A stretch of DNA of 45,233 bases from Escherichia phage vB_EcoM_SHAK7693. This document shows, piece by piece, positions 1 to 45,233 of the stretch. Both the position numbers and the translations under genes were made by a program. The stretch is from the sequence record OR594180. One strand, given 5' to 3'. The notes beneath the pieces are model-generated. The model was given only the letters and a program-made list of their open reading frames with translations. It had not been told where the DNA came from and made no database searches. Positions within the stretch are counted from its first letter, which is position 1. Every line of letters begins with the position of its first letter.

Positions 1-1251
1 ATGAGTATTCAGCTATCCGCGCCGCAGGCACTGTTCCTGAATTGTGACAACAAATACAAGGCCTACGTAGGCGGCTTCGGTAGTGGCAAGACGTTTGTCG
101 GCTGCCTTGACCTGCTTACGTTTATGCTCAAGCACCCCGGTACGCGCCTGGGCTACTTCGGCCCGACCTATCCCGCCATCCGTGACATCTTCTACCCAAC
201 ATTCGAGGAAGCGGCTAACCTGCTCGGCCTTGATGTGCTGGTTAAATCCGGAGACAAAGAGGTTGTGGTTACTCGCGGTAAGACGGTGCTCGGAACGGTT
301 ATCTGCCGCTCTATGGATAACCCCGGCTCGATTGTGGGTTTCAAAATCGCCGCAGCATGCGTGGATGAGCTCGATGTATTGAGCCGAGAAAAAGCTGAAC
401 TGGCATGGAACAAAATCGTCGCCCGTATGCGTCTGGTTATCCCTGGTGTAACCAACCACATCTCCGTCACCACGACGCCGGAAGGGTTCAAGTTCGTCTA
501 CGCCAAGTTCAAAGAGAACCCGACACCGAGTTACTCGATGGTGCAGGCTTCCACACACGAGAATGCGCGGTTCCTCCCGCCTGACTACATTAGCTCGCTG
601 ACCGAGACTTACCCCGCGCAGCTGATTAACGCGTATCTTAACGGGGAGTTCGTCAACCTGACATCCGGCAGCGTGTATTACGCCTACGACCGACGTAAGC
701 ATCGCAGCAAAGAGACAATCCAACCGGGCGACACGCTGTACATCGGGCAGGACTTCAACGTTACGAAGAACGCCAGCGCCGTGTATGTGCAACGTAAAGA
801 CGGCTGGCACGCGGTAGCAGAACTGAAAGGCCTGTTCGATACGCCGGATACCGTGCGCGTAATTACAGAGAAGTGGAAGTCGCAGGGCCACCGCATCGTC
901 GTGTACCCCGACGCCAGCGGCAAGAACCGCAAAACCAACTCAGCATCAATCTCCGATATTGCCTTACTACAGCAGGCGGGGTTCGATGTTCGCGCTAAAT
1001 CTGCCAACCCGCCGGTTAAAGACCGTGTTTTAGCGGTGAATACCGCACTGGAAAAAGGTAAGCTGTGGGTTAACGACCACTTATGCCCTGAGATAGCGAA
1101 GACGCTGGAGCAGCAGGCATATGACGATAACGGGGAGCCCTCCAAAGACGGCATCATCGACCATATGGCAGATGCCCTGGGCTATCCTGTAGTTTACGAG
1201 ATGCCGGTGGTTAAACCAGTAATCAACATCCCGGTGACTTTCGCACTTTAA
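1..1251 (+). CDS. terL: terminase large subunit
   Basis: Walker A GGFGSGKT at aa 24-31; 416 aa; immediately upstream of portal gene. Confidence 0.85.
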   Translation: MSIQLSAPQALFLNCDNKYKAYVGGFGSGKTFVGCLDLLTFMLKHPGTRLGYFGPTYPAIRDIFYPTFEEAANLLGLDVLVKSGDKEVVVTRGKTVLGTVICRSMDNPGSIVGFKIAAACVDELDVLSREKAELAWNKIVARMRLVIPGVTNHISVTTTPEGFKFVYAKFKENPTPSYSMVQASTHENARFLPPDYISSLTETYPAQLINAYLNGEFVNLTSGSVYYAYDRRKHRSKETIQPGDTLYIGQDFNVTKNASAVYVQRKDGWHAVAELKGLFDTPDTVRVITEKWKSQGHRIVVYPDASGKNRKTNSASISDIALLQQAGFDVRAKSANPPVKDRVLAVNTALEKGKLWVNDHLCPEIAKTLEQQAYDDNGEPSKDGIIDHMADALGYPVVYEMPVVKPVINIPVTFAL

Positions 1252-5482: not shown

Positions 5483-5869
5483 ATGAATCTTAAAGCAACT
5501 GTCGTAGCGGGAGCATGTTTCATCACGCTGACTTACGCACACGGCATCTACCAGTATCGCAGCGGCTGGAACGAAGGCCGGGCGAATCTCGTTTCGCAGC
5601 AACAGCAGAAAGCACAGGCTGAGCTGACGAAGAAAACACAACGGCAGCAGCAGGATGAATCAAAGGCCGCCGCCGCTGACAACGAAGGCAAGACGAAATC
5701 AGAGGTGATTACCCGTGAAGTCGTTAAGTACATTAAAACGCCTGGCCGCAGCGTGTGCACTTTCGACGATGCTCGCGTCCTGCTCAAGTCCCACGCCGTT
5801 GCCAACGCCAATTCCATCCCCGGATACGACGATGATGCAGCCGCCGTGCAAACTGGTGCCGCCAAGTAG
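5483..5869 (+). CDS. i-spanin (Rz-like)
   Basis: N-terminal TM helix, long Q/A/K-rich coiled coil; o-spanin ORF embedded in +1 frame. Confidence 0.65.
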   Translation: MNLKATVVAGACFITLTYAHGIYQYRSGWNEGRANLVSQQQQKAQAELTKKTQRQQQDESKAAAADNEGKTKSEVITREVVKYIKTPGRSVCTFDDARVLLKSHAVANANSIPGYDDDAAAVQTGAAK

Positions 5870-5978
5870 CGACGCTGACGAGGATTTAGCTATCGACGTT
5901 CAGAACACCGAATGCGTACGGCAACTGAGGCTGAAAGTGTTCACGTTGCAGGATTACGTGAGGAATATTCTGGAATAG
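5715..5978 (+). CDS. o-spanin (Rz1-like lipoprotein)
   Basis: GTG start with RBS GAGGTG; signal peptide with lipobox LASC; Pro-rich PTPLPTPIPSP; overlaps Rz-like gene. Confidence 0.65.
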   Translation: MKSLSTLKRLAAACALSTMLASCSSPTPLPTPIPSPDTTMMQPPCKLVPPSSDADEDLAIDVQNTECVRQLRLKVFTLQDYVRNILE

Positions 5979-7873: not shown

Positions 7874-8173
7874 ATGGCTAAGACTGGAAAAGGCTTGCCG
7901 CGCAGCCTTCAGAATGTCGATTTCGGCGACTTTGATATCCCTGTCGCACCTGCTACTACCAGCGTAGTTGGTGGGGTTAAAAAGTCAGCTACTGTGGATG
8001 CACCTGCGGCCGTTACCGCAGCCGCGGGGGGGCAGTCCGCTGCTGAACCGACTAAAGTCGAGTTCGACGCGCTTGTAGCGGAGTACAACAAACTCCTAAC
8101 CGATGTTACCGCGCTGCGCACTACCGTAGCGAACCTGTTAACCGCGCTTAAAAACGCAGGAACTGTAAGCTAA
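7874..8173 (+). CDS. hypothetical structural protein with C-terminal coiled coil
   Basis: 99 aa, Ala/Val-rich, heptad-like C-terminus. Confidence 0.4.
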   Translation: MAKTGKGLPRSLQNVDFGDFDIPVAPATTSVVGGVKKSATVDAPAAVTAAAGGQSAAEPTKVEFDALVAEYNKLLTDVTALRTTVANLLTALKNAGTVS

Positions 8174-17625: not shown

Positions 17626-18276
17626 CTAACTACCCTCTTTTATCAAGGCGATAACGCGGTCGAACATACCTTCCCTTATCGCCTCTATCTCACATCTTCT
17701 TGATTCCGCCGCCCTTATCTTTTCAGCAATGTAAGCATCTAGCGCTTCTTCCTGAGTTTCAAAACGTCCTAGATTAATAGTTTTTTTATCACAGCTCACT
17801 GAGGCTTTAAATTTACCTCTAGATTCTTCATAAAAAACACCTGTAGGTGTTCCACTATTTTTCTTCTCCTTTAGGAAAACATTCAACCATTTCGGGATGA
17901 AAATGCAAGTGGTAGGGCTGTATACCTTATTAATACCAGAGAATATGTCCTTATCTAGCTCCCATCCCTCCACATAATTACAAAGCCACCATCTACGGAA
18001 GGACATAAACCTTTGCCACCCATGCCACACAGTTACATCCCTGTACGCAGGCCTTTTGTTTTTATACTCGGCGTCCACGCAACGTTGGATCATCCCTCGC
18101 CATGTAGCGTACGCCAGACACGTCTCACGGCTGCCGTTTATCTTAGGGCTAACCACATAATCGGCGTCATTTATGCCAAAACCACATATAGTTGCACGCT
18201 TAGTTTTGCTGCTTTTGTTCGCAGGATAATTCGCACGCAGCCACATGCTCTTGGCTACTTTTTCGGTTGGCATCAT
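17626..18276 (-). CDS. homing endonuclease-like protein with C-terminal AP2-like DNA-binding domain
   Basis: C-terminal KFKASV...INLGRFETQEEALDAYIAEKIRA resembles AP2 domain; RBS AGGAG before ATG 18276; catalytic motif not recognised. Confidence 0.45.
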   Translation of the reverse strand: MMPTEKVAKSMWLRANYPANKSSKTKRATICGFGINDADYVVSPKINGSRETCLAYATWRGMIQRCVDAEYKNKRPAYRDVTVWHGWQRFMSFRRWWLCNYVEGWELDKDIFSGINKVYSPTTCIFIPKWLNVFLKEKKNSGTPTGVFYEESRGKFKASVSCDKKTINLGRFETQEEALDAYIAEKIRAAESRRCEIEAIREGMFDRVIALIKEGS

Positions 18277-23136: not shown

Positions 23137-25374
23137 ATGTCAAGCGGATGCGGTGACGTTTTAAGCCTGGCGGATTTACAAACCGCCAAGAAGCACCAGA
23201 TTTTCGAAGCTGAGGTTATCACCGGTAAATCCGGCGGTGTTGCTACGGGTGCTGATATCGATTACGCGACAAATCAGGTTACTGGGCAGACACAGAAGAC
23301 GTTACCTGCCGTGTTGCGTGATGCTGGTTTTTCTCCTGTATCGTGGGACTTTTCTACAGGCGGTACGTTAACAGTTAATGACCGCGACAAAGTGGTGTAC
23401 GACCCTGTAAGTAAAACGTGGTACTCGTACGCGGGGACGTTACCAGTTACAGTTCCCGCGAGTTTTAATCCTGTAGGTAACGCTAACTGGAGTCCACAGA
23501 CCGATCCTAATTTACGTGGTGAGTTATCCATCATTGAAAACATAGCTGAGCTTATGTCTAAAACGCCAAACCCAGAACTCACGTACACCGTGAAAGGCTA
23601 TGCCCCCGGTACGACTTTCGGCGGGGGCATTTTCTACTGGGACGCCACCCTCCCTAAGTCACAACACAACGGCATCACTGTATTTAGTCCAACGGTGCCA
23701 TGGGACGGAACCTACACCACTCTCGCGACCTTCTTAGCTGGCACAGGGGAAACCACCCCATCCGGCAGAGGATGCTGGGTCCGTATGCAGAACAGCCGCG
23801 ACATGCTCGTTTCTTGGGGCGGCGTTGACATCACAGGGACGAACGTTGCGGACGCCGCTGTAACCGCTGTTATTAAGTATGCTAATACGGTCAAGCGTTC
23901 TGTTAGATTTGACTCTGGTGCAAATATTAAATGGGGCTTCTCTACCCTTGTCCAGCACTTTGACAAGTTCAATCTTAATGTGCAATGTTCTGTTGTTCTG
24001 GAGAATATCAGCGGGATTAAGGTTTACGCGGAGAATGACGTTGAGTTCAACACTGACCACCCTACTTATGCGGAGCGTGTTGTCTTTCGCCTTAAAAACT
24101 GTAGCGAAGTGGAATTCTCTGGATTCAACTTCAACTCCAATTTCGCCGACTATTCGACGACGACATCGGACACTACGTACAAGCCCCAAGAATGGTGGCA
24201 GGGCTTCACAGCCGAAGGTTGTTCTAATCTAGAAATCACTAAGCATCACGTTAATGCGTGCCAAGTATTTGTAAGGGCTGATTGTACAAACTTAGCAGCA
24301 AACCTTCATAACAAAGATATTCATGTTACAGATAACATGTTTAAGTATGTAACGAATTACTGCGTTATTTCCAGAAACATAAATCTGGTTGAATTCAGCC
24401 GCAACAAGGTTTCATTTAACGGGAGGAAATGGGATACCTTTGGTGAAGCGTTCGCTCCAACAACAGGCTCTCTCAATATAATTGCTAGAGATAATATTTT
24501 TACTGACCAGATTGCGCAACAGTCGTGTATAACTCCGACGATAGGCGCTTTATCTGTAACTATTCAGGGTAACTATTGCCGGCGGCAGTATGGTATTTTT
24601 GTTGAACTCGGTAGTTCAAGCAATGTGTTAATTTCTGGTAATACATCGATAAGTACCGGTGAGCGCGCTGATACAACACACATTCTTTTGATTGGGGCGG
24701 TAGATGGCAATCCGGCAGGTGGGCTTTCAAACGTAAACATTACCGCAAACTATTTTCAAGGCGGTGGTTTTGCCATTCAAGAATACAATACCGGAAACGC
24801 ATTGCGCACTGGGTTCAGTATAACTAATAATCATATGATTGACTGCAAATTACCAGCCATCACTAACCAATCTTACATTGGTGTTGTAGTTCGCGGTAAC
24901 TATATGGAAGCACCCACTAACTTTCCTGATTTAGCTATCGCAGGACAGAGGCCTGTTATAGACAGTAACATGTTTGTTGGTGTTAGGGTGCGTGCAAGAG
25001 ATTTAGGGTATAGCGTAATAGCTCCTAAGGTAACCAACAATGTATGGAGAGCAAACTCCCTGGGGGAATCATATCCAGCACTTATCGACTATACCGAATT
25101 CACCGCATTAGTGGCGGATGGCAACGACTCAACAGCAGCGGCGTACACGGACTTCATTGTCCACCCTTCAAATTGTAATAATGCAGGGTTCCGCAGAGTA
25201 GGCCATACCGAAGGGTTTACTGTCAGCCCTACTGCAAGATTTGGAGCCAAGCTCACTGATGCCAGAGTAGGTGATTTTGTAGCTAATTCGTCCCCTACAG
25301 CATCTGGTGCTTATGCGTGGGTATGCGTTAACCGATCAACAAAAGCGTTCAGTTCTATCGCATTGAGCGCATAA
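23137..25374 (+). CDS. tailspike / receptor-binding protein with beta-helix repeats
   Basis: 745 aa; Asn/Gly/Ile/Thr-rich repeats typical of right-handed beta helix; last structural gene. Confidence 0.6.
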   Translation: MSSGCGDVLSLADLQTAKKHQIFEAEVITGKSGGVATGADIDYATNQVTGQTQKTLPAVLRDAGFSPVSWDFSTGGTLTVNDRDKVVYDPVSKTWYSYAGTLPVTVPASFNPVGNANWSPQTDPNLRGELSIIENIAELMSKTPNPELTYTVKGYAPGTTFGGGIFYWDATLPKSQHNGITVFSPTVPWDGTYTTLATFLAGTGETTPSGRGCWVRMQNSRDMLVSWGGVDITGTNVADAAVTAVIKYANTVKRSVRFDSGANIKWGFSTLVQHFDKFNLNVQCSVVLENISGIKVYAENDVEFNTDHPTYAERVVFRLKNCSEVEFSGFNFNSNFADYSTTTSDTTYKPQEWWQGFTAEGCSNLEITKHHVNACQVFVRADCTNLAANLHNKDIHVTDNMFKYVTNYCVISRNINLVEFSRNKVSFNGRKWDTFGEAFAPTTGSLNIIARDNIFTDQIAQQSCITPTIGALSVTIQGNYCRRQYGIFVELGSSSNVLISGNTSISTGERADTTHILLIGAVDGNPAGGLSNVNITANYFQGGGFAIQEYNTGNALRTGFSITNNHMIDCKLPAITNQSYIGVVVRGNYMEAPTNFPDLAIAGQRPVIDSNMFVGVRVRARDLGYSVIAPKVTNNVWRANSLGESYPALIDYTEFTALVADGNDSTAAAYTDFIVHPSNCNNAGFRRVGHTEGFTVSPTARFGAKLTDARVGDFVANSSPTASGAYAWVCVNRSTKAFSSIALSA

Positions 25375-25389
25375 AACTACGGCCCCTAT

Positions 25390-25415
25390 ACGGCCCCTAA
25401 CGGGGCCTTTTTCTT
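25390..25415. terminator. rho-independent terminator
   Basis: GGCCCC-TAAC-GGGGCC then TTTTTCTT. Confidence 0.55.
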
Positions 25416-25551
25416 ACTCTTCTGATAACTTCTCCAGTACAAACGCCAGTTGCGCATTAGCGGCATCTCTTTGCTGGCGTAGGCGTAGAACCTCCTCCTC
25501 GAGTTCCTTGATACGTTTTTGCAATGCTGGAATAGGGGCTTCTAAATTCAT
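25414..25551 (-). CDS. hypothetical small coiled-coil protein (45 aa)
   Basis: Hand-translated; ATGA overlap with upstream gene. Confidence 0.35.
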   Translation of the reverse strand: MNLEAPIPALQKRIKELEEEVLRLRQQRDAANAQLAFVLEKLSEE

Positions 25552-25781: not shown

Positions 25782-27202
25782 TTCTTACCTCGTCTCTTCA
25801 TGTAATTAAGCAATTCTTCCTGGACCGATTTCTTCTCGTCGGTACGCGCGGCAACAACCTCATCCAGCGTGTCTCGGGCTATTATTTGATAAATGAATAC
25901 AGACCTTTTGTATCCAGATTGCATCTGCCTTACCGGACCTATGCGCTCGATAACCTGCAGATAATGTTCCAGGTTCCATCCCTGACTCATAAAAGCCATG
26001 TGGTGTCCGCCGTGTTGTAGCGACAGCCCGTGACCCGCAGAGGCCGGGTGTATTAGGAGCATAGGTATCTCGCCACGGTTCCACGCTTCCATCTGCTTAT
26101 TACCCTTAGCGCCTTTGGCAAACGCCTGGGCTTGAGGGAATCGCTTAAGGATACGTTCCAGTTCGTGCTTGAACTGATAGGCCACCAGTAACGGTGCCCC
26201 CTGTAACTCCTCAACAATGGACTCGAGCGCATCCAGTTTCGTATCGTGCACTTTCTCCCAGTCTTTGGTTGCTTCTCCGTCTGGCCCCGATACATATACA
26301 GCGCCGGATGCAATCTGTAGGCACTTCGACGTCTTCGCGGCAGCGTTAGCCGCTTCAACTTCTCCGCTCTCCAGTTCCGCGAATAACTTTTCCTCCATAT
26401 CGATGTACGCCTGACGCGCCTTCTTCGGCAGGTCAATTTCCACTGGCACGATAATCGGCGCTTCGCAACCAAACCACTCGGCGGCGTCAACCGTGAGACT
26501 AATGTCTTTCATCTTCTGATGAATCTCATTATCCGCACCCGGTCGTGCGTGATACTCCCGCGCCATCGCGGATTTCCCTTTCTGTACCGAGTTAAACCAG
26601 CGGTCTGTGAATGCCGTGTACGAAGAACCAAGGCGCTCGCCAGCGTCGATAAACCAGTTCTGCCCCCACAAGTCCTTGAGGCCGTTCGGCGACGGTGTGC
26701 CTGTCAGGTTAATGAAACGCTTAACCTTTCCGAACGCCACTTTGCTTAGCGCCTTAGCCCGTTTGCTTCCTCCAGAACGGCTACGGAAAGATTTCAGCTT
26801 CGTGCTCTCATCAGCAACGATAACCGTAAAAGGCCAGTCGTCTTTGCCGTAGTAGTCAATCAGCCACTCGATAACTTCGTAGTTTGTGCACACCACGTTA
26901 GCATCTGACTCCAGCGCCGCGATACGGCGCTTCTCTGAACCGGTTGCGTCTACGACACTCAGACAGGGGAAGTTCCAACGTGCCTGTTCCGCGGGCCACG
27001 TACCTGACGCAACACGTAAAGGAGCCAGAATTAACACTCGGTCGTCGTCATTAAGTTGCCCATTACGGAACAGCCGATTGAGAACCCACAACGTTGACCC
27101 CGACTTACCGCTGCCCATGCTCGCCCAGATATTGCAGCGATGGTGCCGCAGCATGAACGAAGTCATGAGCTTCTGGTATTCGCGCCTTTGAAACTTACTC
27201 AT
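25778..27202 (-). CDS. SNF2-family helicase
   Basis: Walker A GSGKS, DEST box, LTGTP, C-terminal helicase motif GHGLSLQ. Confidence 0.8.
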   Translation of the reverse strand: MSKFQRREYQKLMTSFMLRHHRCNIWASMGSGKSGSTLWVLNRLFRNGQLNDDDRVLILAPLRVASGTWPAEQARWNFPCLSVVDATGSEKRRIAALESDANVVCTNYEVIEWLIDYYGKDDWPFTVIVADESTKLKSFRSRSGGSKRAKALSKVAFGKVKRFINLTGTPSPNGLKDLWGQNWFIDAGERLGSSYTAFTDRWFNSVQKGKSAMAREYHARPGADNEIHQKMKDISLTVDAAEWFGCEAPIIVPVEIDLPKKARQAYIDMEEKLFAELESGEVEAANAAAKTSKCLQIASGAVYVSGPDGEATKDWEKVHDTKLDALESIVEELQGAPLLVAYQFKHELERILKRFPQAQAFAKGAKGNKQMEAWNRGEIPMLLIHPASAGHGLSLQHGGHHMAFMSQGWNLEHYLQVIERIGPVRQMQSGYKRSVFIYQIIARDTLDEVVAARTDEKKSVQEELLNYMKRRGKK

Positions 27203-28061
27203 TTACCGCCCCCATGAATGCCTTTATAAATTCAGCGGCTACTTGCGGGACGATGGCATTGCCATAACCGCGCAATCGTCCCACTCTGGCGGGTATCCCA
27301 TTAGCCAGCGGGAATGCGCCGGGTTCAACTGGCCTGAATTTTCCATCCCGGCATCCGAGCCAGTCAGTATCTGACCAGAAGCCGTGATGCGGATTGGTTG
27401 TGTTATTTTCAGACCCTGCTCCGTCGAGTAGTCCAGCCTGTCGAATGTTCTGTCTTTTCCGTCCTTGCGAATAACTGTCTCTCCGCTCCCTCTGTAATCG
27501 TTCGCTGTTGGGGTCGGCCATGCCAAAAGGTATTGTGCGTGCGTCGCCAGATTGCAATTCGCATTCGGTCTGTTGAAGCGTTTTTCCGCGTAGGCTTGTG
27601 GGTCTTTCGCTCTGCTGTTGTTGTCGTCCGCAACCGCTGGCGTCGGCCAGGTTGTGCGCGCCGAAGAACAGTCTGTCGCGTTTGTGCGGTGCGCCGACGC
27701 TACAAGCTGGGAGTACGGCAAACCCGACGGCGTAGTCTTCTCCTTCCAGGTGAGTTTGTAAATCGCACATCCACGATTTTGCAATTGCTGGCGCAACCTG
27801 CTCCCCAAAGAGGACTGGAGGTCGGCACTCGCTGATAAGGTCGAGGAACACAGGTGCGAGGTGTCTCTGGTCGAACTGTCCGAGTTGCTTTCCCGCCGCG
27901 CTAAACGGTTGGCAAGGCGGGCTTCCCGTCCAGAGAGGCGCATCTTCCGGAACTCCCGCAAGTCTGAGCGCGAGAGGCCAGCCGCCGATACCAGCGAAAA
28001 AAATGACACTGGGTGAACCCGTCAAGGTCTTCTGGCTTAACTTCGGTAATGCTTCTTTCAT
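27195..28061 (-). CDS. DNA (cytosine-5)-methyltransferase-like protein
   Basis: Motifs FAGIGG (I), PPCQPFS (IV), GEQV (VI), KRDRLFF (VIII), GNAIVP (X); motif I to IV spacing unusually short. Confidence 0.6.
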   Translation of the reverse strand: MKEALPKLSQKTLTGSPSVIFFAGIGGWPLALRLAGVPEDAPLWTGSPPCQPFSAAGKQLGQFDQRHLAPVFLDLISECRPPVLFGEQVAPAIAKSWMCDLQTHLEGEDYAVGFAVLPACSVGAPHKRDRLFFGAHNLADASGCGRQQQQSERPTSLRGKTLQQTECELQSGDARTIPFGMADPNSERLQRERRDSYSQGRKRQNIRQAGLLDGAGSENNTTNPHHGFWSDTDWLGCRDGKFRPVEPGAFPLANGIPARVGRLRGYGNAIVPQVAAEFIKAFMGAVNE

Positions 28062-28149
28062 CTACAACTCCAAAAGGTATGTGACCCTGCTTTATTAATT
28101 CACGCAGCCACGCTGCCGCGCTTTTATCCCATTCATTGTAGTAATTCAT
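27901..28149 (-). CDS. ORF overlapping 5' end of methyltransferase in another frame
   Basis: ATGA-coupled to upstream gene; N-terminus carries NEWDK-like motif; A7/T7 tract at 27997-28003 at frame junction. Confidence 0.3.
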   Translation of the reverse strand: MNYYNEWDKSAAAWLRELIKQGHIPFGVVDERSITEVKPEDLDGFTQCHFFRWYRRLASRAQTCGSSGRCASLDGKPALPTV

Positions 28150-32132: not shown

Positions 32133-32624
32133 TTATTTGCCGTGATTTTCGTGGAAACCGTACTTAACCTCTGCGGCCTTTCGCGCTGCTATTGCGCCGT
32201 CGATAGTTTCAAAACGTCCGAGATGAATTAGTTTCTTCTCAACTTTTATCTCAGCTCGCCATTTGCCGCGGGTTTTATCGAAACTAACACCCGTCACCCC
32301 TGACGTGTTGTTGCGGGCTAAAGATAAATTACGGCTGTTCTCTTTTCGGGTTGTTTTCCTTAAATTAGAAAGAAGATTATTTTCCCGATTATGGTCAATA
32401 TGGTCTATCTCCTCTCCAGGTTGAAGTTTATTTTCAGGGTTCATCATATCCCATATAATTCTATGCGCCAGAAATGTCCTTCCACGTAAACGTACGCACA
32501 CATAGCCCCAATTACGGACAGACGCGACCTCGCTCCCAGCGGGTGCACGATTGCTGTTAGTTACGCGCCAATACAACTTACCGGTATTGGTATCATACCT
32601 AAAATAATCTTCCCATTTAATCAT
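32133..32624 (-). CDS. HNH homing endonuclease with AP2 domain
   Basis: DHIDHNRENN...ENSRN HNH motif; GVSFDKTRGKWRAEI...LGRFETIDGA AP2 domain. Confidence 0.8.
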   Translation of the reverse strand: MIKWEDYFRYDTNTGKLYWRVTNSNRAPAGSEVASVRNWGYVCVRLRGRTFLAHRIIWDMMNPENKLQPGEEIDHIDHNRENNLLSNLRKTTRKENSRNLSLARNNTSGVTGVSFDKTRGKWRAEIKVEKKLIHLGRFETIDGAIAARKAAEVKYGFHENHGK

Positions 32625-39291: not shown

Positions 39292-39447
39292 ATGAGAGAA
39301 GCATTCGAACGGTGGGCCGTCGTCGAGGGTCTGCCCGTTAATAAGGGTTCGAAGAAAGAGTACCTGAACGTTAAGACGCGTCTCGCGTGGCGGGCGTGGA
39401 AAGCTGGTGTGTTGTCTGTTGTGTTGTCTGTTGCGAATCCGAGGTGA
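39292..39447 (+). CDS. hypothetical small protein (51 aa) containing 12-bp tandem duplication
   Basis: Hand-translated; GTGTTGTCTGTT x2 encodes VLSVVLSV. Confidence 0.35.
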   Translation: MREAFERWAVVEGLPVNKGSKKEYLNVKTRLAWRAWKAGVLSVVLSVANPR

Positions 39448-41238: not shown

Positions 41239-41402
41239 CGTTAGCAACTGACATCCTGAAACACAGCGGCAAAGCGCCGCTGTCACCACGTAAAAGACAT
41301 TTCAACACGCATCCGACGTATCTTGAATTGCATGAGTGCCGGAAGACACCCGCACAACGACTGGCTGAATATTGGAGAAAGCATGACTACTATCGCATTT
41401 GA
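41235..41402 (+). CDS. hypothetical small protein (55 aa)
   Basis: GTG start with RBS GAAGGAG, GTGA overlap. Confidence 0.3.
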   Translation: MTLATDILKHSGKAPLSPRKRHFNTHPTYLELHECRKTPAQRLAEYWRKHDYYRI

Positions 41403-41823
41403 CGGTAAGACTATGGCCTGTGATACCCGGGTTACGTGCGGAAGCAGTTACTATAATACCGACACTAAGATATACGAGAATGATTTTTATATTATCGGAG
41501 TAGCCGGTGACGCGGGTGTCGGAACTATGCTCGTAGACTGCCCGTATATCCTCCAGGCCAGACATTATGACTTCGATTTCGAAGCCCTGGTGTTTGCTAA
41601 AGACACGCGGAAACTGTATAAAGTCGCGTTCTATAAATCGTGGGATTGCACTCTTAGTTCAGTTATCCTCGTCGCCGACAAATTCTCTGCCGTTGGGTCT
41701 GGTTCTCCGTACGCTCTGGCCGCCATGTATTTAGGTAATACCGCTACACACGCTGTTATGGTAGCGGCGGAGTTCGACACGAACACAGGCGGCAAGATTA
41801 TTACCAAACCATTATTCGGATAA
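41383..41823 (+). CDS. HslV/proteasome-like Ntn-hydrolase protease
   Basis: N-terminal M-TTI (Thr1 nucleophile after Met removal), conserved Lys ~33, GSGSPYALAA motif; alignment to E. coli HslV done by eye from memory. Confidence 0.6.
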   Translation: MTTIAFDGKTMACDTRVTCGSSYYNTDTKIYENDFYIIGVAGDAGVGTMLVDCPYILQARHYDFDFEALVFAKDTRKLYKVAFYKSWDCTLSSVILVADKFSAVGSGSPYALAAMYLGNTATHAVMVAAEFDTNTGGKIITKPLFG

Positions 41824-41882: not shown

Positions 41883-42191
41883 TTGGATAAATTTACTGAA
41901 ACTGTGACAGGCTGGCTTCTGGCTGCCGCACTAGCTGGCGGGGTAATAGGCCTACGGCAACACAAAGCCACTATTACTGGTCCTGTCGATGCTCTCTGTT
42001 TTCTCGCCACTGGATTTGCGTGCGCCGTATTCGGTGCACCTCTTGCCGCTCAATGGTTCGGTATCGCAGGTGAACGCGAAATAGCAGGCCTTGGGTTCAT
42101 CATTGCTATTCTCTGGATGCCCATCTATTCCCGCCTCTCCGGTATCGTCGCCGGAGAATATATCGCACGTCGAGGAGGCACAGATGAATGA
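41883..42191 (+). CDS. holin-like membrane protein
   Basis: Several hydrophobic helices; directly upstream of lysozyme; TTG start. Confidence 0.5.
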   Translation: MDKFTETVTGWLLAAALAGGVIGLRQHKATITGPVDALCFLATGFACAVFGAPLAAQWFGIAGEREIAGLGFIIAILWMPIYSRLSGIVAGEYIARRGGTDE

Positions 42192-42456
42192 GTTATTCTG
42201 GTTCGGTGGTATGCTGGCAATCGGAGGCGCATCGCTGTTTAATGTGTATCACCCCCGCGTGGACGACGGACTATTTGGCCGGGTGCTCTATATCCTGACT
42301 GCTATTGTCTGCGCCGCCGGAGGCATTCACCTGTTACAGGGCAGCATGTCGCCCACGTTGCCTGAGACCTTAATCACATTAGTTGCGCTGCGTCAGATTC
42401 GTCAGGCGTGGCTATCATATGGAGGATATAAGCGTGTCTCGAAACATTTCCGATAA
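42184..42456 (+). CDS. second lysis-cassette membrane protein (holin/antiholin-like)
   Basis: Two hydrophobic helices; RBS GGAGG; overlaps holin stop. Confidence 0.45.
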   Translation: MNELFWFGGMLAIGGASLFNVYHPRVDDGLFGRVLYILTAIVCAAGGIHLLQGSMSPTLPETLITLVALRQIRQAWLSYGGYKRVSKHFR

Positions 42457-42953
42457 TGGCTTACATTTCTGCGCCGCGTTCGAGGGATTCCGCGGAATTG
42501 CGTATCGTGCTACGCCGAATGAGAAGTACCTGACTATTGGGTACGGTCACTATGGGCCGGACGTAACACCAGGTAAGACCATCACCCCTGGCCAAGGCCT
42601 CCTGTTACTGAATCGCGATAGGCCAAGGCCTCCTGTTACTGAATCGCGATATGGCTAAGGCCGTAGCTGCGGTTGATGCAGCAGCACACCATTCGCTGAC
42701 ACAGGCGCAGTTCGACGCCGTGTGTGACCTGGTCTATAACGCCGGTGCAGGTGTGATTGCAGCTACTACTGGCACGGGTAAGGCGCTGCGTTCCGGTGAT
42801 GTTGCGACGCTACGGGCTAAACTGGCGCTGTTTATCAACCAGAACGGCAAACCGCTACTCGGCTTGCGCCGTCGTACAGCGGGTCGTCTGGCGCTGTACG
42901 ACGGTAAACCATGGCGGGAGGCAGAGGCTATTGGGCGCGCGGTGAAAGGTTGA
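42419..42953 (+). pseudogene. endolysin (GH24 lysozyme) interrupted by a 31-bp tandem duplication
   Basis: N-terminal ORF has EG..AY...TIGYGH; C-terminal ORF has QFDAV..L.YN.G lysozyme motifs; frames differ by +1 at duplication. Confidence 0.7.
42590..42651. repeat. perfect 31-bp tandem direct duplication
   Basis: GGCCAAGGCCTCCTGTTACTGAATCGCGATA at 42590-42620 and again at 42621-42651. Confidence 0.9.
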
Positions 42954-43017: not shown

Positions 43018-43052
43018 CTCCCGGCCCTGACCCAGCCGGGATTTTTTTTTAT
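43018..43052 (+). terminator. rho-independent terminator after lysis cassette
   Basis: CCGGC...GCCGGG stem followed by T9. Confidence 0.6.
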
Positions 43053-44598: not shown

Positions 44599-44691
44599 TA
44601 CATCCTGCCTAATCCCCTTATATAATCCCTTTAGACGCGTAGGGCGCGTCTGGTGCGCTCTGATGGTCAGACGCATATGCAAGGGGGTTCT

Positions 44692-45233
44692 ATGAAGCTG
44701 AAACTTAAGCGGCCATCGCCAGAGGTGGTGCAAGCTGCGCATGAAGAAGCTGTTAGCGCAAACCGTCGCCGTAAACGACCGCGCGGTAAACAGAGTCTTT
44801 ATCAATCATCCCGTAATTCCGCCGCGCTGTGGGACCCGGACTATTGCGACGCGTTAATCGAGTTCTTCGACCGCACGTCTTGGGAGCTTGTGCCTACGTC
44901 CAAGGGTGACGAACGCCCGCTGATTCAGGATAAGCCCCCGTCACTGGCCCGCTTCGCCTTACACATCGGCGTAACTATCCCTATTATTAAGCTGTGGTTG
45001 CGTGAGATTCCGGCGTTTGCAGAAGCCTATGAAACCGCTCAGGCGCTGGAAGAGGCGTATTTCACTGAGACAGGCGCTGCCGGTATCTCCGCTACGTTTG
45101 CTGCGGTTAAGCTGGGCTTAAGCAAAGAGAAACCTGTTGAATCCTCCGAAGAAACTGCGCCGACTGAGATTGTGTTCACCGTAGCGGAGCCGGTAGGTAA
45201 AATCGTTACCACGAACATGGGTGAGGTAGGGGA
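44692..45233 (+). CDS. putative terminase small subunit (3'-truncated by window end)
   Basis: RBS AAGGGGG; HTH-like ARFALHIGVTIPIIKLWLREIPAF; last gene before terL assuming a circularly permuted genome. Confidence 0.45.
   Translation, partial: MKLKLKRPSPEVVQAAHEEAVSANRRRKRPRGKQSLYQSSRNSAALWDPDYCDALIEFFDRTSWELVPTSKGDERPLIQDKPPSLARFALHIGVTIPIIKLWLREIPAFAEAYETAQALEEAYFTETGAAGISATFAAVKLGLSKEKPVESSEETAPTEIVFTVAEPVGKIVTTNMGEVG

Follow-up and report, generated by a model that had tools for sequence, protein, structure and literature searches.

Endolysins made from two polypeptides are represented by PlyC of the streptococcal phage C1, where a whole catalytic chain and a binding chain are separate gene products, each with its own translation signals, in an arrangement that is conserved. 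It is established phage biology that lambda R and T4 e mutants form no plaques. A single-chain system is EC340 of the E. coli phage PBEC131 (the parent of mtEC340M), a single-domain lysozyme of 162 aa that is active in zymograms and has no cell-wall-binding domain (PMC8886149). Assemblers can also make short duplications, since Sanger sequencing proved that internal repeats of about 79 bp in przondovirus assemblies were artefacts (PMC10438801). It is also documented that circularisation can fail by leaving duplicated bases where the ends are joined (PMC6966772), and frameshift assembly errors are among the common defects of phage submissions (PMC8785237).

The window, i.e., the whole 45,233-bp stretch of DNA analysed here, is a Kagunavirus (Guernseyvirinae) genome of about 45 kb. 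It is approximately 90% identical to several E. coli phages, and no near-identical public record to it was found. A sequence-only reading of this DNA had described a perfect 31-bp tandem repeat in the endolysin gene, and this was corroborated. The 31-mer GGCCAAGGCCTCCTGTTACTGAATCGCGATA is present twice, the copies are identical at 31/31 positions, and Tandem Repeats Finder agrees (period 31, score 134, 2.3 copies). No other perfect tandem duplication in the window has a period above 12 bp, and by our arithmetic the chance expectation of this one is about 45,000 x 4^-31, or around 1e-14. The positions of the features are collected in Table 1.

Table 1. Positions of the features discussed, in the window unless another record is named.
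Feature	Record	Position	Strand	Remarks
Holin 1	Window	41883-42191	+	phrog_2359, E = 5e-29; intact; 99% identical to the phage Ivi homologue
Holin 2	Window	42184-42456	+	phrog_2508, E = 9e-31; intact; 3' end overlaps the endolysin start
Shine-Dalgarno GGAGGA of the native endolysin start	Window	42421-42426	+	7 nt before GTG 42434
N-terminal endolysin fragment ORF	Window	42434-42658	+	74 aa from the native GTG
Left member of the imperfect 10/11 direct repeat, TGGCCAAGGCC	Window	42589-42599	+	
Copy 1 of the 31-bp unit, GGCCAAGGCCTCCTGTTACTGAATCGCGATA	Window	42590-42620	+	Native frame reads ...GQGLLLLNRD
Copy 2 of the 31-bp unit, equal to copy 1	Window	42621-42651	+	Gap in relatives (alignment); +1 frame RPRPPVTESR...
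C-terminal endolysin fragment ORF	Window	42651-42953	+	100 aa, MAKAVAAV...GRAVKG
Right member of the imperfect 10/11 direct repeat, TGGCTAAGGCC	Window	42652-42662	+	
Terminator-like hairpin CCCGGC...GCCGGG followed by T9	Window	43020-43050	+	Downstream of the lysis cassette; read from sequence
Methyltransferase ORF	Window	27901-28149	-	
Methyltransferase ORF	Window	27195-28061	-	
60-bp tandem duplication	fFiEco02, MT711523.1	40334-40459		In frame, hypothetical gene FE2_062
56-bp tandem duplication	L039	667-782		No open frame of at least 60 codons; about 0.8 kb upstream of the endolysin
21-bp tandem duplication	L086	28377-28423		In frame
3 x 15 bp tandem duplication	L038	1290-1337		In frame

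Another repeat in the window, the 12-bp tandem repeat TGTGTTGTCTGT x 2.2 (39408-39433), has a conserved counterpart at the corresponding site of phage Ivi (44559-44584 of that genome). This marks it as a genuine inherited feature, in contrast to the 31-bp duplication.

The length of the duplicated unit is 3n + 1, so the duplication is out of frame. The frame split that had been claimed was found as described: the gene as written encodes no uninterrupted polypeptide, and its two ORFs lie in different frames. The N-terminal fragment consists of 62 native residues and a 12-aa frameshift tail, RPRPPVTESRYG, which ends at the TAA at 42656-42658. It keeps the catalytic-Glu motif AAFEG and the TIGYGH motif. 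In an alignment of 26 sequences E17, the putative catalytic Glu, and T34, G36 and G38 of the TIGYG turn were invariant, and all of them are in the N-terminal fragment. The C-terminal fragment restarts at the ATG at 42651, 5 nt upstream of the stop of the first fragment (overlap ATGGCTAA), and the final base of copy 2 is the A of this native Met63 codon.

Regarding translation, the native start is the GTG at 42434, which agrees with the annotated start in the relatives. Its Shine-Dalgarno duplex (-9.3 kcal/mol) is in the top 1.3% of random ATG contexts. The TTG and ATG further upstream are not the start. The ATG of the C-terminal fragment has no Shine-Dalgarno sequence (+0.4 kcal/mol versus the native -9.3 kcal/mol, weaker than 89% of random ATG contexts), and therefore this fragment could be translated only through reinitiation after the overlapping stop in ATGGCTAA. 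A programmed +1 frameshift past the insertion was discarded, as no recognised slippery motif was seen in copy 2 by inspection.

The removal of one copy gives a single endolysin ORF of 162 aa with the junction ...TITPGQGLLLLNRDMAKAVAAV..., as the sequence-only reading had anticipated. Against Pfam PF00959 (Phage_lysozyme), the repaired protein scores 92.9 bits (cutoff 22.3) with a single unbroken match to positions 2-122 of the 125-position model, and it is also colinear with the relatives. Moreover, it aligns end to end with PDB 8HP8, 'Endolysin mtEC340M' (E = 1.6e-95), through ...GQGLLLLNRDMAKAVAAV..., and it has the same length of 162 aa. The underlying gene is an ordinary, already characterised type of endolysin (GH24/PF00959, T4-lysozyme-like). 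Unlike EC340 and the PF00959 family, the window has two ORFs, and neither fragment alone is a known functional unit; the N-terminal one scores 33.4 bits (model positions 2-47) and the C-terminal one 46.0 bits (model positions 49-122). The break separates residues 62 and 63, midway along a predicted helix (residues 54-73) that joins the catalytic N-lobe to the C-lobe. This helix comes from the AlphaFold model of the closest intact homologue (94% identical), from which only the helix assignment near the break was used, the N-lobe residues 20-55 having a pLDDT below 50.

The relatives and the public collections were examined for the same duplication. Searches of the phage collection returned 109 and 165 matching records, and none of the 30 and 40 relatives listed carries two copies; each of these GenBank relatives spans 31 bp less than the window. 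A two-copy record would rank first in such searches as a single-piece match, and none did. In IMG/VR, all of the close relatives (52/52) have one intact ORF of 159-166 aa, except for two cut by contig ends, and no tandem duplication of at least 10 bp was found in the endolysin gene of these 52. Furthermore, the best 120 protein clusters out of 5.8 billion all encode products of 157-168 aa. The new junction of the two copies reads CTGAATCGCGATAGGCCAAGGCCTCC, and the junction pattern of the duplication had no match in the viral, metagenome or genome contig collections. The exact fragments (alternative starts included) and the exact repaired protein were absent from a collection of 15 billion proteins.

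Judged by these searches, the duplication appears unique to this record among the relatives and collections examined, which argues for an artefact. The sequence-only reading would have been contradicted by a consistent two-ORF arrangement in related phages, but this arrangement was found in none of the relatives examined. In addition, the 31-bp segment differs at up to 17/31 positions among the relatives while the copies in the window are identical, which also favours an artefact. Since the duplication has no counterpart and its copies are identical, the event must be either extremely recent or not biological.

The organisation of the record offers an explanation of the second kind. The record starts exactly at the terL ATG (window 1-3). 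The small terminase gene terS (44653-45233, 96% identical to Ivi terS) crosses the end and finishes in the overlapping ATGA at the start, and the joined end and start align to phage Ivi across 987 bp with no gaps. The record thus represents an assembly that was made circular and then cut at a gene of choice, and its limits are not physical genome ends. The original contig ends of the assembler must therefore now be internal, and this favours an assembly artefact as the origin of the duplication.

In our opinion, copy 2 is probably not in the phage genome and would come from an untrimmed overlap between the start and the end of a circular contig, or from an equivalent duplication during contig joining or sequence handling. 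The circularly permuted genome would have left the assembler as a linear contig with the same 31 bases at its start and at its end, the contig break landing by chance inside the endolysin gene. Once taken to be circular, the contig would have been cut anew at the start codon of the large terminase gene, which would leave the two overlap copies adjoining each other in the interior of the record. We infer that the original contig ends were at 42620/42621. The real phage would have one copy and an ordinary single-chain GH24 (T4-lysozyme-like) endolysin of 162 aa, together with two holins and a spanin pair. This explanation was drawn from the finished sequence. Identical adjacent copies, arbitrary breakpoints and rotation to terL are what the window has in common with untrimmed circular-contig overlaps.

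Untrimmed overlaps of this kind occur in sister records, and this also favours an artefact. The terminal-repeat check took in eight complete Kagunavirus GenBank records, and exact terminal direct repeats were present in two of them: 55 bp in OR992644.1 and 87 bp in OQ696342.1. In OQ696342.1, joining the ends after removal of one copy gives an unbroken alignment to the window in the tail-tube region and the naive join splits it, so the 87-bp repeat is an untrimmed assembler overlap. The ends of OR992644.1 are in a tailspike segment without a homologue in the other genomes compared; its repeat, a putative overlap, has a length of 55 bp, equal to a default SPAdes k. An untrimmed terminal overlap is the precursor of an internal back-to-back pattern once the record is rotated, and it is common in the genus.

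The length of the duplication can be read in two ways. A value of 31 is a very common assembler k. Nevertheless, the default settings of SPAdes, the commonest phage pipeline, would leave 55, 77 or 127 bp and not 31. The assembler used most for phages does not have 31 as its default final k, which counts against an artefact.

The main alternative to be weighed is a genuine, very recent 31-bp duplication, produced by template switching or replication slippage, that inactivated or crippled the endolysin. Tandem duplications are known in the genus, and four internal ones, of 15, 21, 56 and 60 bp, were found in relatives. The 60-bp slippage-type duplication in FE2_062 of fFiEco02 resembles that of the window in genus and in having perfect or near-perfect head-to-tail copies of some tens of bases. 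The perfect identity of the copies in the window is also compatible with a recent event. On the other hand, the junctions of the four comparison duplications show microhomology of 3-6 bp each, and under random breakpoints P(>=3) is 0.044. In the window the junction microhomology is 0 bp: the period-31 identity ends at the copy boundaries and does not continue one base further on either side. No extension is the modal outcome of random breakpoints (P = 0.58), and the two exact, directly adjacent copies thus have arbitrary limits. This difference from the duplications of the relatives speaks for an artefact. Furthermore, three of the four comparison duplications are multiples of 3 and in frame, and the fourth is outside long ORFs, whereas the one in the window has 31 bp and destroys an essential enzyme, its product being out of frame in a sole endolysin gene that is intact in every relative examined.

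A genuine event also finds some support in the surroundings of the unit. It is bracketed by an imperfect 10/11 direct repeat, TGGCCAAGGCC and TGGCTAAGGCC, the second member of which accounts for the 2.3 copies given by Tandem Repeats Finder. Such a repeat is present at only 0.16% of the genome positions (a post hoc count, with an uncorrected p of about 0.002), and it hints at a sequence-driven event, which counts against an artefact. However, its members are 32 bp apart in the single-copy sequence, not 31, and simple slippage on them was rejected because it would give a 32-bp unit keeping a T that is absent between the copies. The repeat does not account for the junction, and its position around the unit would be an unexplained coincidence.

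The lysis genes bear on whether such a phage could persist. Both holins and the spanin pair (5483-5869 and 5715-5978) are intact. No second muralytic gene that could compensate for the endolysin was found in the annotation of the relatives or among the ORFs specific to the window. An out-of-frame duplication in the only muralytic gene, with a C-terminal fragment that has no Shine-Dalgarno sequence, favours an artefact, and a phage whose majority genotype had no endolysin should not propagate or dominate the lysate. A genuine duplication would have to persist by one of three routes: a bottleneck together with complementation from wild-type phage in the same cells, leaky activity, or frequent copy loss by recombination restoring the wild type. 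Considering both sides, we regard a genuine duplication that inactivated or crippled the endolysin as rather unlikely. A genuine recent duplication of any outcome, a functional two-piece enzyme included, would be a minority possibility.

Two other features of this region were observed. The hairpin downstream of the lysis cassette was not called by a consensus terminator scanner, because its loop is 9 nt long. Directly upstream of the holins there is an HslV-family peptidase-like ORF (41323-41823; phrog_1040, E = 3.5e-36), which is only 63% identical to the 'putative protease' of Ivi, while the flanking holins are 98-99% identical.

It could also be proposed that the two fragments are made from one mRNA by termination-reinitiation at ATGGCTAA and assemble non-covalently into an active lysozyme. 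The position of the Met63 ATG just upstream of the stop fits translational coupling, each fragment retains a recognisable half of PF00959, and endolysins are generally made in excess, so that low activity may suffice. As in PlyC, two polypeptides would be encoded side by side. Unlike PlyC, a single catalytic domain is cut here in mid-helix, as predicted from the homologue, the second piece has no Shine-Dalgarno sequence, and the arrangement is in one record only, being absent from the hundreds of relatives examined. The N-terminal piece would also carry its out-of-frame tail, and the overlap of ATG and stop arose by accident, from the native Met codon and a TAA that is out of frame. Hence, an active two-piece lysozyme is very improbable. 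The same holds for a real duplication in a viable phage in the wider sense, either with two associated pieces or with a few ribosomes or genomes restoring the frame.

The sequence-only reading had left three options, of which an assembly artefact is the most likely and a recent mutation is possible; the third, a reversible expansion-contraction (contingency) switch in which the copy number of the repeat turns the endolysin ON or OFF, was unsupported. It is established that a two-copy perfect repeat readily loses a copy by slippage or recombination, and the change from OFF to ON would be easy. Nevertheless, no variation in copy number was found in the listed GenBank relatives or the 52 IMG/VR loci, and the change from ON to OFF would have no microhomology at the breakpoints of the single-copy sequence to make it occur at appreciable rates. 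Known contingency loci consist of short units in long arrays. Moreover, a virulent phage would have no conceivable benefit from its sole endolysin being OFF. A switch of this kind is hardly credible.

The quality of the record was evaluated through other frame breaks. The gene encoding a cytosine-C5 DNA methyltransferase is split by one additional base in a run at 27997-28003 (A7 on the + strand, T7 in the gene), and apart from this gene and the endolysin none in the genome is broken in comparison with two annotated relatives. The run has 6 bases in 40/40 listed relatives and 7 in the window, and the gene is one continuous ORF in K1G, fTaEco01 and Ivi. The downstream ORF still has an ATG before the FAGIGG motif. 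This +1 change may be an error of sequencing or may mark a true pseudogene. As another unique slippage-type change in the same genome, it is consistent with a genuine origin of the 31-bp duplication as well.

When the homopolymers of at least 6 bases (n = 12) were compared with 8 relatives, a length difference was confined to the methyltransferase run; the G7 at 8026 reflects a substitution rather than a length change. An argument from a low-quality sequencing platform was considered and down-weighted, since just 1/12 homopolymers has a length discrepancy. A genome-wide megablast census of indels gave mostly paired alignment gaps in diverged regions and was set aside as carrying no information. 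With no systematic homopolymer errors, the record is not obviously a low-quality assembly, and the lack of a systematic sequencing-error signature is a point in favour of a genuine duplication.

Other differences from the relatives were observed along the genome. An HNH endonuclease ORF (32136-32624, minus strand) encodes a protein 99.4% identical to that of Ivi, in genomes that average about 90% DNA identity. It is absent at the same position in fFiEco02, and a weak paralogue is present at 17713-17865. This suggests a homing endonuclease that may have moved recently. The tailspike (23137-25500) has only its first 135 residues or so in common with the tailspike of fFiEco02, the remainder being unrelated, and it looks like a typical swap of the receptor-binding module.

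If the duplication is an artefact, the finding is mainly one of quality control: one well-known endolysin would be mis-annotated as two hypothetical ORFs, and the genome length would be 31 bp too high. A general screen follows from it, in which a perfect tandem duplication with zero junction homology, in a genome rotated to a gene start, is presumed to be an untrimmed overlap until reads are seen. The same screen picked up the 55-bp and 87-bp untrimmed terminal overlaps in the two public sister genomes. If the duplication is real, it would be a natural experiment on an enzyme with the T4-lysozyme fold split in its inter-lobe helix. It would then show how a lytic phage gets by when its only endolysin is damaged, which would be moderately interesting for the biology of these phages but not field-changing.
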